A stretch of DNA of 64,000 bases from an uncultured Planctomycetales bacterium (GCA_964535935.1 CAZHWM010000020.1:1210-65209); one strand, 5' to 3'; counted from the stretch's first letter, positions 11,896 through 51,761 are shown. The notes: generated by a model not told the origin, from the sequence alone. Program-made: numbers and translations.

Positions 11896-12645
11896 TTAAT
11901 TTACATTAATTTTAACAGTATCATCCTTTTTCTGACTAATCCCCTGTTTTCGTGCTACTTTTATAGTCAACACTCCCTTTTTATAGTCAGCTTTAATAGA
12001 ATTCAAGTCTGCATCATCTGGCAAAGGAATAGAACGGGCAAAATATCCAAACCTCCTTTCCCGTTTAAAGAAATGATTGCCTTTATTCTCATCAAGTTCA
12101 TTCCTCTGTCCTGAGACAACTAGCATATGCCCCTTTGTTTCTACATTAATATTTTGTTTATCCATGCCGGGGATATCCATTTTTATTATATAACTGTCTT
12201 TAGTAGCTTTTACATCTGTATCCAAATCAAATGGGTTCTTTCTACTAAACCATCCAAAACCATTATACGCCCTTACACGGCCAAAGGCATCTCTGAACAT
12301 ACGATTCATCTGTCTCTGTATACGAACAAGTTCATCTAAGGGATCTGCGCTAACACTTCCGCCAAAACTATCCCAATAATCAGGCTCATTAAATTTAATC
12401 GGCGGAGTGGAAATAACTATGCTCCCTTGAGGCCGTATGTTATTGGACTGAACAGATAATGCCGCTATCTTTTTCTTTAAACTTCCTATCTGCCAGCTAA
12501 AAAAACAAACCACAACTAAAAAAAGGACTATTAGTCCTATAATAATCTTTTTACTATTTTCATCTATAGCAGCAGAACCAGCTTGCGACTGCAATTCATT
12601 TTTATTGTCTGACTGCTCAACATTGGTTTTATTTTCTGTGCCCAT
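11896..12645 (-). CDS. membrane-anchored Hsp20/alpha-crystallin family protein
   Basis: 249 aa. It has a polar N-terminus, one hydrophobic helix (IIIGLIVLFLVVVCFFSWQIG), then an ACD (DSYIIKMDIPGMDKQNINVETKGHMLVVSGQR ... FGYFARSIPLPDDADLNSIKADYKKGVLTIKV). A GAGGAGGGAG RBS precedes the start. Confidence 0.85.
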   Translation of the reverse strand: MGTENKTNVEQSDNKNELQSQAGSAAIDENSKKIIIGLIVLFLVVVCFFSWQIGSLKKKIAALSVQSNNIRPQGSIVISTPPIKFNEPDYWDSFGGSVSADPLDELVRIQRQMNRMFRDAFGRVRAYNGFGWFSRKNPFDLDTDVKATKDSYIIKMDIPGMDKQNINVETKGHMLVVSGQRNELDENKGNHFFKRERRFGYFARSIPLPDDADLNSIKADYKKGVLTIKVARKQGISQKKDDTVKINVN

Positions 12646-12724: not shown

Positions 12725-12973
12725 TTAAAACAAATCAAACAACTCACTTCTAAATCCATCATAACGTTTTCTAAAACGCCTTAATGCAACTGCAGAACTA
12801 ATAAATACCAAACCGATTACCACAAATATTGAAGCAATCATAGCAACCAACAACTGCGGCACCAAAACAATCAGTACTCCAAATAATATAAACAAAATTC
12901 CCTGTAATAGTTGATGCTTCCATGTCATAGAAAAACCATCAAAAAACACATCAAATACATCTATCTTCTGCAT
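12725..12973 (-). CDS. small two-helix membrane protein (DUF308/HdeD-like repeat)
   Basis: 82 aa. WKHQLLQGILFILFGVLIVLVPQ... followed by a second helix. An AGGGAG RBS precedes the start. Confidence 0.5.
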   Translation of the reverse strand: MQKIDVFDVFFDGFSMTWKHQLLQGILFILFGVLIVLVPQLLVAMIASIFVVIGLVFISSAVALRRFRKRYDGFRSELFDLF

Positions 12974-13044: not shown

Positions 13045-13425
13045 TTACGTAGAAATTTCAACCTTCTGAGGCTGTGCTTCTTTAGCTTTAGCAAGAGTAA
13101 TTTTTAATACACCATTCTGATAGTTTGCAGAAATATTCTCCTTGTCTACATCTGTATTTAGCTCAAAAATACGCCTATACTCTAAATCAGCGTATCTTTC
13201 CTGATAAACAGAAGTATATTCTTCCTCAATCTTATCTTTCTTCCTAACTCCTTTCACTATCAACTGATCTCCACACAATTCTACACTTAATGCATCTTTT
13301 TGTACCCCTGGCATATCCATCTCTATTACCACCGCATTTTCTGTCTCTGTTATATCAACAGGCGGCTGAACTACCAGCCTTTCCCCATCTTCTCTATTAC
13401 GTTTAATAAGCCTGTTAAGCCTCAT
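13045..13425 (-). CDS. Hsp20/alpha-crystallin small heat-shock protein
   Basis: ACD motifs AVVIEMDMPGVQKDALSVELCGDQLIVKG and NGVLKITLAKA. The start is set at the ATG 8 nt after GGAGGAGG; the track's GTG start at 13434 sits within the RBS. Confidence 0.9.
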   Translation of the reverse strand: MRLNRLIKRNREDGERLVVQPPVDITETENAVVIEMDMPGVQKDALSVELCGDQLIVKGVRKKDKIEEEYTSVYQERYADLEYRRIFELNTDVDKENISANYQNGVLKITLAKAKEAQPQKVEIST

Positions 13426-13495
13426 AAATATCACCTCCTCCTTTAATTAATCTTATAAAAGAGGATAAATTCTCTCTCCCCTTTACGAGATATAA

Positions 13496-13972
13496 TTAAT
13501 TAACATCAATCTTAATCTGTTTAGGTTTTGCTTCTTCTTTCTTAGGCAAAGTTAATTCTAAAACCCCATCTTTAAATACAGCTTTAACTTTAGAACCATC
13601 CACCTCACTTGGAAGACTTATACTACGGTGGAAACTACCATAAAACCTTTCTGAACGGATATAATCTTCTTCTTTTACTTCTCTCTCTTGTTTTTTCTCG
13701 CCCTTTATGGTAAGGATATTATCCTGAATCAATACCTCTATATCGTCCTTTTTTAGCCCAGGCAGATCTGCTTTTACTACAACATTATCTTTAGAATCAT
13801 AAATATCAATAGCAGGTGCCCACTGTCCGCCTAAAAGAGTAGTATCGGTTTCCCCAAGTCTTGGAAACGTCAAATCAAATAACCTATTCATTTCTCTTTG
13901 AAGATTCTCTAACTCCTGAAAAGGAGATATTACATTCCAATCTTTTGTCCTTTTAGTAGGAACATTTGCCAT
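13496..13972 (-). CDS. Hsp20/alpha-crystallin small heat-shock protein
   Basis: SPFQELENLQREMNRLFD N-terminal motif. ACD motifs NVVVKADLPGLKKDDIEVLIQDNILTIKGEK ... ERFYGSFHRSISLPSEVD ... DGVLELTLPK. The start is set at the ATG after GGAGGAGG; the track's GTG is at 13981. Confidence 0.9.
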   Translation of the reverse strand: MANVPTKRTKDWNVISPFQELENLQREMNRLFDLTFPRLGETDTTLLGGQWAPAIDIYDSKDNVVVKADLPGLKKDDIEVLIQDNILTIKGEKKQEREVKEEDYIRSERFYGSFHRSISLPSEVDGSKVKAVFKDGVLELTLPKKEEAKPKQIKIDVN

Positions 13973-14141
13973 AATTATCACCTCCTCCTTCTTTATTTAT
14001 ACTCTTCTAATAATTATAATTACAAATAAATACATATAAACAAAATCAATTTTCACTACCATACTTCACTTCGAAATAAATCATTTTTATCTCATTTTAC
14101 CACCCCCCTTCTTTAACCAACCTTTATTTTTCATCAAATAA

Positions 14142-14168
14142 TTAGCACTCGATAGGCATGACTGCTAA
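14142..14168. promoter_or_regulatory. CIRCE-like inverted repeat (HrcA-operator-type)
   Basis: TTAGCACTC-GATAGGCAT-GACTGCTAA matches 17 of 18 arm positions of the CIRCE consensus TTAGCACTC-N9-GAGTGCTAA. It lies between the hspR-like stop codon and the first hsp20. Confidence 0.6.
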
Positions 14169-14189: not shown

Positions 14190-14477
14190 CTATTCTCCCT
14201 CCATCTCCAATATCACCTTCAGCCCGTTAATACATACTCTCTTTTTATTCAAATAATACCAACAACGCTGAATCTTGCTTAGTTCTCGTTTAGAATAATA
14301 TCGTGTATCCCCCTTCCTCTGTCTCTTAGGACTAACAATACCTTTTTCATCTAATTGCTTTAATACCCATACTGGAATATCTAAAATCCTACATATTACA
14401 CCTGTTGTAAACACAGGTTCATCAGGATCGATATATACCTCTTCATAATTATCCTTTGATTTTGCCCCCCCCTTCAT
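14190..14477 (-). CDS. MerR-family HTH regulator, HspR-like
   Basis: 95 aa. FTTGVICRILDIPVWVLKQLDEKGIVSPKRQRKGDTRYYSKRELSKIQ...INGLKVILEME follows the MerR/HspR HTH-wing pattern. It sits at the head of the sHSP locus. Confidence 0.8.
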   Translation of the reverse strand: MKGGAKSKDNYEEVYIDPDEPVFTTGVICRILDIPVWVLKQLDEKGIVSPKRQRKGDTRYYSKRELSKIQRCWYYLNKKRVCINGLKVILEMEGE

Positions 14478-50355: not shown

Positions 50356-51654
50356 CTATTTTTTCTTAGGTATCGTTATAATCAGCTCATCACCTTGAGT
50401 GGTTGTTGTCAATTTATCTGTATCCGCATCTTCTGGCAGAGATACAGATTTCAAAAATGAACCATAGGTATGCGAACGCACTGATGAATTTTTCGTAGTC
50501 TCTTCTGTCTGCTCAGAATATTCTCCTGATATGGACAATGAATGCTGATGTATTTCTATATCTATCTTATTCTTATTAAGACCCTTTGTATTAATCTTCA
50601 TCTCATATTTATCACCCAAATCCTTTAATTCAAAATCAGTATCATAAAACAAATCAGTATCAAACATCCCTGGCATACCTCCTTTAGAAGTTATACCAGA
50701 AAAACTATCTTCAAATATTCTACGCATACTCTCACGCATACGTTCCATCTCAGCAAACGGATCCCACCGTCTTCCCACAGAAGAGAAGGAAGGAGACAAA
50801 CTCTGAGATTTCATACTACTCGTATTATTAGAAGAAATATTACGTTTCACAGAGACACTTTTATTTCTTCTATACTCGTCCAATGCCTTTTTAACCTTCT
50901 CTATGGGTATAGCAAAACCTATACTCTGAGAATTCTGAACCACTGCCACATTAATACCAACCAACTCCCCATTCAAATTAAGCAATGCACCGCCACTATT
51001 ACCAGGATTAATCGGTGCATCTATTTGCAAAAGGCCATCAAATACGATCCTACCATTACTAGCCTCTATCTTTCTATCCTTCCCACTTATAACTCCCACA
51101 GTAACCGAATTTTCAAGCCCTAAAGGATTTCCTATCGCCACAACTGTCTCTCCTATCATAACATCTCCTGGCTTGCCCAATTTAGCTGCATGCAAGGGCT
51201 CAGGGGGAGTTATTTTTACAATTGCAATATCATCTTTAGGGTCTTCATACATCACCTTCCCCTCTACTGACTTACCATCCCTTAATATGACCACCACATT
51301 ACTAGCCATATTCACAACATGTGCATTAGTTACTATAATCCCATTCGTATCTAAAATTACACCTGACCCCACACTATGTAACTTCAATGCCCGCCTTGGA
51401 GTATAATAACCAAAGAATTTTTCAAAAAGCATATCGAATTCACTGCCATAACGTCCCCAAAATGGATTCTCACTAAGATAAATCAACCGCTCAGTACTTA
51501 TATTCACAACTGCAGAGGCATTTTCCCTTACTACCTTCACCACTGGTGTTTCTCTAGGATTATCCTTAGAGGCAAAAGCAGATCTCACGCATACACAAAT
51601 AACCGCTATCGACATAAAAACAATAGACCTTCTATAGGACGACCATCTCCTCAT
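50356..51654 (-). CDS. HtrA/DegP-type serine protease fused to a C-terminal Hsp20 alpha-crystallin domain (no PDZ evident)
   Basis: Signal-peptide-like N-terminus. The S1C triad contexts are TNAHV (His112), DDIAIV (Asp141/142) and GNSGGAL (Ser220). A Ser/Asn-rich linker is followed by [18 protein letters not shown] ... [29 protein letters not shown] ... [15 protein letters not shown] ... ELIITIPKK. Confidence 0.85.
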
Positions 51655-51761
51655 AGCTCATCCCTCCTTTCCAACAAATCTACTCCTATATATATTCATA
51701 TAAAAATTTTAAATTAAAAATTTCTATCCACATTAAATTCTTTGCATAAATTAAATAAAAT

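Follow-up and report, generated by a model that had tools for sequence, protein, structure and literature searches.

The stretch of DNA considered here, 64,000 nucleotides from an uncultured Planctomycetales bacterium (GCA_964535935.1, CAZHWM010000020.1:1210-65209) that is referred to in the following as the window, contains at 50356..51654 a gene that encodes an HtrA-type protease with a small heat-shock protein (sHSP) module in the place that is usually taken by a PDZ domain. We regard this architecture as nearly certain. A preliminary description of the window had reported a single reading frame of 432 residues; it is indeed uninterrupted, starts with ATG and fills these coordinates exactly, but the strand has to be corrected, as the gene lies on the minus strand and the plus-strand translation of 50356..51654 contains stops throughout. 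The structural statements on the protein refer to single-chain (monomer) models only, namely a full-length AlphaFold2 model and a separate model of residues 296-432, with confidence given as predicted local distance difference test (pLDDT). The gene and its parts are as follows.

50356..51654, minus strand: complete open reading frame for the HtrA-like protease with sHSP module, ATG at 51654-51652, stop codon at 50358-50356.
51662..51669, minus strand: Shine-Dalgarno-like AAGGAGGG (AAGGAGG core), 8 nucleotides 5' of the ATG, found by sequence inspection.
51571..51654, minus strand: predicted Sec-type signal peptide, residues 1-28, with four Arg in the n-region, the c-region RSAFA and a predicted cut between AFA and S (heuristic call).
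50854..51555, minus strand: S1C (HtrA-type) chymotrypsin-fold protease domain, residues 34-267, with the triad H112, D142 and S220 (Pfam, TIGR02037, 1l1j, Foldseek).
51379..51489, minus strand: aromatic-rich, family-specific insertion at the position of the LA loop, residues 56-92, NPxWGxYGSEFDxxFxxFFG.
50770..50853, minus strand: Ser/Asn-rich disordered linker, residues 268-295, with pLDDT < 50 over 275-295 and a gappy, unconserved alignment.
50641..50769, minus strand: sHSP N-terminal arm, residues 296-338, with WDPF, an amphipathic helix and a flexible Gly-rich stretch.
50359..50640, minus strand: alpha-crystallin domain (ACD; beta-sandwich), residues 339-432, with the signature GxFx[RK]xxxLP, ending at beta9.

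In Pfam searches, Trypsin_2 (PF13365) matches residues 96-234 (E 3.3e-32), Trypsin also matches the protein (E 2.9e-17), and HSP20 (PF00011) matches residues 345-432 (E 2.9e-13, 50.2 bits against a cutoff of 20.8); a match to a PDZ family was not found in the 432 residues, even at E <= 1. The NCBIfam models for the Do family, HhoA, DegS, DegQ and DegP have matches that are confined to the protease half and all remain far under the curated cutoffs, and TIGR02037 falls short of its cutoff of 416 bits with a score of 226, since its match (profile positions 3-234) covers the protease half only. The motifs TNAHV (H112), DDIAIV (D142), GNSGGAL (S220), WDPF (297-300) and LPEDAD (406-411) could be located, and all motifs quoted in the preliminary description are found in the reading frame. 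The arrangement that it had proposed, a putative leader followed by an S1C domain with intact triad and an sHSP module without PDZ, is borne out by Pfam, NCBIfam, an alignment of 42 sequences from diverse members of the family, a profile search of PDB sequences and Foldseek; profile and structure comparisons agree that the C-terminal part matches HSP20, not PDZ, and has the alpha-crystallin fold of sHSPs.

The closest solved structure to the protease half is the protease domain of Thermotoga maritima HtrA (1L1J, E 3.5e-48), with 41% identity over 235 columns, and the cyanobacterial HhoA is also close. Foldseek matches 1L1J and DegS with a probability of 1.00, and the model superposes on 1L1J, DegS-deltaPDZ and HtrA1. 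H112, D142, S220 and the oxyanion loop GNSGG are invariant in the 42-sequence alignment, which argues for active proteases instead of pseudo-enzymes and supports catalytic competence at the level of sequence. In the same alignment the residues P64, W66, G67, Y69, G70, F77 and F80 of the insertion 56-92 are nearly invariant. The insertion is modeled with a helix at 72-81 and with pLDDT < 50 over 56-70 and 82-92, and it may constitute a lid or a regulatory loop.

HtrA proteases are trimers in which the PDZ domains at the C-terminus recognise the hydrophobic ends of peptides and join trimers into cages. With HtrA, DegP, DegQ and DegS (S1C) the fusion shares the ATP-independent chymotrypsin-fold protease with its His-Asp-Ser triad and GNSGG oxyanion loop, the N-terminal leader (predicted in the fusion) and a long loop at the LA position, but it has a C-terminal sHSP module instead of PDZ. 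Because a PDZ domain is missing and the scores remain below the curated Do, DegP, DegQ and DegS cutoffs, the protein is, on these profile comparisons, best called a protease of the HtrA lineage (S1C) with a non-canonical architecture and not an orthologue of DegP, DegQ or DegS. The PDZ-less HtrA-like proteases P0098-P0120 (256-301 residues) belong to the same protease lineage and have no PDZ either, but they differ from the fusion in that they possess no C-terminal domain whatever. Plant Deg5 is another PDZ-less HtrA-like protease.

Profile and fold agree on the C-terminal module, which is a nearly complete sHSP. A profile built from 27 C-termini of the family matches among the PDB sequences the chloroplast Hsp21, pea Hsp18.1, a Xylella sHSP and wheat Hsp16.9 (E 3e-16 to 1e-14), and the alignments to Hsp21 and to the Xylella protein take in the N-terminal arm. 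With the model of residues 296-432, the best 50 PDB matches listed by Foldseek are all sHSP/alpha-crystallin domains (probability 1.00). The helix of the arm at 299-322 is present in both models, WDPF and the amphipathic helix together spanning 297-322, and the beta-sandwich spans residues 342-430. The loop between beta5 and beta7 comprises 32 residues from SGE to LP, as many as in the plant class I sHSP P0260. Non-metazoan sHSPs form their beta6-swapped dimers by means of this loop, and its retention here is compatible with such dimers, which the module might form by analogy.

Free sHSPs build large oligomers through a C-terminal I-x-I tail. The fusion protein ends 3 residues past beta9, and its HSP20 match covers positions 4-89 of 102; the three other Hsp20 proteins of the window match positions 1-101/102. 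Among 88 fused relatives, an [IV]x[IV] motif in the C-terminal tail was found in none. With the non-metazoan sHSPs (wheat Hsp16.9 1GME, pea Hsp18.1, chloroplast Hsp21, Xanthomonas/Xylella HspA) the module thus shares the WDPF-type N-terminal arm, the alpha-crystallin beta-sandwich, GxFxRxxxLP and the full-length beta5-beta7 (beta6) loop. Those, however, are free proteins of 12-43 kDa, whereas the module is the C-terminal part of a protease, is devoid of a C-terminal extension and of I-x-I, and is predicted to be extracytoplasmic. The full-length AlphaFold2 model has an overall pLDDT of 76 and values > 85 in the protease core. The linker 268-295 that joins the two domains differs in length and sequence among the fused relatives, and a PDB structure that spans both domains was not found by Foldseek, the alignments of which extend over at most 247 columns (TMq <= 0.43).

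The identical 432-residue protein occurs on three contigs from assemblies at NCBI, JGI and ENA, each time among the same neighbours, and a search of 5.8 billion proteins retrieved about 95 cluster representatives of 334-449 residues and 45-81% identity, all of which combine PF13365 with PF00011. The named representatives are almost all assigned to Candidatus Omnitrophica/Omnitrophota, to which 'Ca. Makaraimicrobium' likewise belongs; exceptions by label are one Deltaproteobacteria and one 'Planctomycetia' label that was met in a contig scan. The architecture is real, is conserved across the uncultivated Omnitrophota and is not rare. The contig scan, which was made with the family alignment, brought up, in at least 600 matches listed, mostly ordinary HtrAs that share generic HtrA motifs; the only true fusion among the matches listed is L002, which is identical to P0062. 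The apparent full-length match L012 (Acidobacteriota) was rejected as a fusion, as it consists of joined tblastn pieces at a canonical HtrA-PDZ gene with clpB immediately upstream. Joined tblastn pieces also explain the apparent full-length match L008 (Thermoanaerobaculia), where no open reading frame of at least 200 residues is listed and clpB is again immediately upstream, and the apparent full-length match L009 (Thermoanaerobaculia) is of the same kind. A separate case is P0123 (362 residues), which looks like a chimera of assembly or gene calling in which an N-terminus resembling pyridine-nucleotide-disulphide oxidoreductases is joined mid-strand to the end of the protease and the sHSP module.

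Several family members carry the JGI automatic annotation 'S1-C subfamily serine protease/HSP20 family molecular chaperone IbpA'. The full-text literature searched yielded nothing on fusions of HtrA with an ACD or on bacterial sHSPs that are exported, and the sole tangential remark that was found concerns an hsp20 gene near htrA in acidophiles (PMC10490939). The novelty claimed in the preliminary description therefore stands insofar as no paper on the architecture was found, but it has to be qualified by the approximately 95 cluster representatives and by the existing JGI annotation. The architecture is apparently unstudied. Automatic annotations already show it, its known spread seems limited to an uncultivated phylum, and any function assigned to it below is what we infer.

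The leaders were judged with explicit heuristics on the n/h/c layout and the flank charge. In the window protein, the four Arg of the n-region are followed by an h-region of 13-14 residues and then by RSAFA, with the predicted cut before the next Ser. The same layout directly precedes the conserved RETPVVKVV in 88 of 92 full-length relatives, with a median uncharged run of 16 residues, and the mean net flank charge of the fusion leaders is +3.2 on the N-terminal and 0.0 on the C-terminal side. The segment is probably a Sec leader or, in the least favourable case, a signal anchor with its N-terminus inside, and both would place the two domains outward, so that export and a periplasmic or periplasm-facing location are predicted. 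The extracytoplasmic location that the preliminary description had made conditional on a functional signal peptide gains support from the conservation of the leaders across the family and from the nearest relatives of the module, which are sHSPs with signal peptides themselves.

These relatives were obtained by an exhaustive HMMER search with residues 296-432 against 1.84 billion representatives, which gave 5644 matches, the best 149 of which were analysed. Stand-alone sHSPs of 170-270 residues account for 135 of the 149, with a hydrophobic segment at the N-terminus in 132 of them. The top-ranked type (a) has a signal-peptide-like leader, WDPF and an ACD that ends with ...IPKK without an I-x-I tail, as in the fusion, while proteins of type (b) carry a hydrophobic anchor, and their C-terminal tail ends with K[IV]x[IV]. 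Flank charges in the short-tail group of type (a) are +2.9 (N) and -1.3 (C), and a coiled-coil segment LKAQIEALQKRVEELE was found in 37 of 53 short-tail proteins. Ten module relatives were looked up, and the five with an organism name are all Candidatus Omnitrophota. The stand-alone signal-peptide sHSPs of Omnitrophota (P0126 = MGE0268587.1, P0127, P0139) have the same ACD subfamily as the fusion (40-48% identity, E down to 1e-34), the LPxDAD motif, the ...IPKK end without I-x-I and a Sec-type leader, but between leader and WDPF they contain the coiled coil LKAQIEALQKRVEELE where the fusion contains the protease domain. Membership of the module in an sHSP lineage already bearing export signals is an independent line of support for an extracytoplasmic role.

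In a neighbour-joining tree computed from the protease domains of 120 relatives, the 95 fused proteins all group in a single clade, with PDZ-less, protease-only HtrA-like proteins of 256-301 residues as outgroups or sister; P0098 is the closest protease-only outgroup. The protease-only proteins P0084 and P0087 are nested within the fused clade, and P0087, a genuine gene for 295 residues that is followed by a gene on the opposite strand, points to a secondary loss of the module. The simplest reading is one fusion event in Candidatus Omnitrophota with rare loss, the partners probably being a PDZ-less HtrA-like protease and a member of the Omnitrophota signal-peptide sHSP clade. The stand-alone exported sHSP and a protease-only relative were not found as adjacent genes at the loci examined, and there is therefore no 'Rosetta-stone' gene pair. 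When the preliminary description spoke of a replaced PDZ region, this was correct architecturally, but in evolutionary terms a direct replacement seems the less likely course: the tree favours addition of the module to an already PDZ-less enzyme, because PDZ is also missing from those proteases that come nearest to the fused clade without belonging to it.

Two side observations concern the same ACD subfamily. The proteins P0122 and P0126-P0139 and the product of L090 5001-5618 are Omnitrophota sHSPs of about 200 residues with a cleavable-looking signal peptide, and thus candidate periplasmic sHSPs, on which no literature was found. P0254 (MDD5281466.1, Omnitrophota), one of the five named relatives, has 887 residues, an N-terminal hydrophobic leader and an ACD of this subfamily at its extreme C-terminus (residues 772-879); counting the fusion, no fewer than two different proteins of Omnitrophota with predicted export have therefore acquired this ACD.

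The sHSPs hold unfolding clients via their N-terminal arms and ACD grooves, and in the cytoplasm DnaK/ClpB then take over these clients. As ATP is absent from the periplasm, such a transfer is not possible there. We think that the fusion is a periplasmic, ATP-independent 'hold-and-degrade' protease, and consider this whole package moderately probable. A holdase would be wired directly to an ATP-independent protease in one chain. Capture of unfolded envelope proteins would fall to the hydrophobic arm at the N-terminus of the module and to the beta4/beta8 groove of its ACD, a groove that would be unoccupied because the module has no I-x-I tail of its own, and the captured clients would be presented to the protease trimer. 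Two-fold ACD dimers between three-fold HtrA trimers could furthermore link larger, possibly cage-like assemblies, the ACD bridging trimers as PDZ-PDZ contacts do in DegP and DegQ. Holdase activity, oligomer geometry and the coupling of holding to degradation are all proposed here by analogy to the separate systems.

Several observations weigh against this proposal. In the AlphaFold2 model the contact between protease and sHSP module is not confident, and the linker and residues 317-338 are disordered. The subclade P0068-P0078 (about 385-394 residues) has lost the WDPF/helix arm and most of the linker, the ACD following almost directly after the protease, and the WDPF arm can therefore not be essential to the role of the ACD. 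By the heuristic call, the leader could also be an uncleaved anchor. A conserved operon partner was not found, the neighbours differing at every locus examined. Finally, a controlling inverted repeat of chaperone expression (CIRCE) was not found upstream of the fusion gene, the single one of the window being located elsewhere, and stress regulation of the fusion gene in the window is therefore unsupported.

The missing arm in that subclade, in which a client-binding type of element was dropped and the ACD kept, can be explained if the ACD serves regulation or assembly alone and either gates the protease, for example by inhibition in cis until a peptide binds in the beta4/beta8 groove or merely links the trimers, without any holdase function. 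Such gating would be analogous to the sensing of the C-termini of outer-membrane proteins by the PDZ domain of DegS; in PDZ-bearing HtrAs such as DegS and DegP the C-terminal domain is generally known to be mainly a peptide sensor and assembly module, and a groove that no I-x-I tail of the protein itself fills would suit this role. However, most members possess a full sHSP N-terminal arm that aligns with bona fide chaperone sHSPs, and the nearest relatives of the module are free-standing exported sHSPs that have no protease to regulate, so that we regard a purely regulatory ACD as rather doubtful.

The tailless ACD could also be a docking module, which forms heterodimers with the free exported sHSPs of Omnitrophota or receives the I-x-I tails of anchored ones, such as the product of 11896-12645, and thereby brings the protease to the complexes that these sHSPs form with their clients. 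The same lineage encodes free sHSPs with signal peptides that belong to this subfamily, and also anchored sHSPs with K[IV]x[IV] tails, of which the one of the window ends with KINVN. The topology of the latter is ambiguous, though, with the C-flank more positive than the N-flank, and its ACD may be cytoplasmic; docking seems unlikely to us as the role of the module.

It is quite improbable that the fusion is a precursor whose Ser/Asn linker is cleaved, autocatalytically or in trans, so that a periplasmic sHSP and a protease without PDZ are set free, or in which the ACD is a folding or secretion aid that is discarded. The long disordered linker and the existence of protease-only relatives, some of them nested in the fused clade, would fit such processing, but linkage in one open reading frame has been kept in about 95 lineages at 45-81% identity although separate genes are common in the phylum, which argues that the physical linkage matters. 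That the gene is an artefact, either of assembly or of a frameshift, or that its C-terminus is a PDZ domain or an unrelated beta-sandwich, is practically refuted: it could draw only on the prior that metagenome assemblies sometimes make chimeras, of which P0123 is the one case seen, and the assembly-made fusion that the preliminary description wished to exclude is excluded by the identical protein on three independent contigs and the 95 related clusters of the same architecture, just as HSP20 (E 3e-13), the lack of a PDZ match and the best 50 Foldseek matches listed, all sHSP/alpha-crystallin domains, dispose of another fold.

The hold-and-degrade protease may be part of something larger. As a tentative possibility, Omnitrophota could have a so far unrecognised extracytoplasmic sHSP system made up of free coiled-coil sHSPs, ACDs on other exported proteins and the HtrA-ACD 'hold-and-degrade' machine, with ACD-tied cages and with capture by arm and groove replacing PDZ sensing.

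HtrA proteases are textbook 'protease plus PDZ' machines, with substrate sensing and cage assembly attributed to the PDZ domains. A natural swap of PDZ for an sHSP module tests which of the PDZ roles are generic, and peptide capture and symmetric bridging may be so. For the sHSP field, the fusion points to alpha-crystallin chaperones outside the bacterial cytoplasm that have no ATP-dependent refolding partner, and it raises the question of the fate of extracytoplasmic sHSP-bound clients. With regard to protein design, a three-fold trimer joined to a two-fold dimer is a classic recipe for self-assembling cages. For the Omnitrophota, finally, an uncultivated phylum of which little is known, it provides a way into the study of envelope proteostasis.

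On the minus strand of the window, the fusion gene is preceded by a NifU-like gene and followed, 17 nucleotides downstream, by an acylphosphatase gene and then by genes for a metallophosphoesterase and LigA. A second HtrA paralogue was not found in the 64-kb window by tblastn, and a promoter and terminator scan gave signals no better than shuffles. At the locus L087 (5001-8088) of another Omnitrophota genome, the fusion gene is followed by two Hsp20 genes, an open reading frame of 97 residues and GroES (Cpn10) in a heat-shock-like cluster, and at L090 a type (a) exported sHSP closes a MerR-Hsp20-Hsp20 cluster, the layout of which matches the cluster at 11.9-14.5 kb of the window. Both loci suggest a link to stress genes. 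A gene for a cyclophilin-like protein of 125 residues (PF04126) is located shortly upstream of the genes of the fused P0076 (L086 3502-3879) and of P0098 (L091 4592-4969); it is not present in the window.

The Hsp20 cluster of the window contains, besides two cytoplasmic Hsp20 genes, the following features.

11896-12645, minus strand: Hsp20 of 249 residues, type (b), with the N-terminal transmembrane segment IIIGLIVLFLVVVCFFSWQIGSL and a tail ending KINVN (I-x-V motif).
12725-12973, minus strand: membrane protein of 82 residues with two transmembrane-like segments and a weak DUF7670 match below cutoff, with the cytoplasmic Hsp20 genes on one side and the anchored Hsp20 on the other.
14142-14168: near-perfect CIRCE, TTAGCACTC-N9-GAcTGCTAA, with 1 mismatch, the only one in the window.

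The CIRCE lies between a MerR-family gene (14190-14477, minus strand) and the Hsp20 operon (13981 downward), and this position implies HrcA-type control of the operon. The sHSP module of the fusion has 30% identity and 75.9 bits with the membrane-anchored Hsp20 (11896-12645), the best value in the window, followed by 62 bits with the Hsp20 of 161 residues (13496-13981) and 21 bits with that of 129 residues (13045-13434). The module is hence closest to the anchored protein, as had been judged by eye, but the alignment with all three Hsp20 proteins that had been described holds only for those of 249 and 161 residues, the one with the 129-residue protein being marginal (E 0.003). The flank charges of the anchored Hsp20, +4 on the C-terminal and approximately 0 on the N-terminal side, leave its topology ambiguous, and its ACD may be cytoplasmic. 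This protein belongs to a large and apparently undescribed class of N-terminally anchored sHSPs. A small open reading frame, placed similarly to that of the 82-residue membrane protein, also occurs after the Hsp20 pair in L087.

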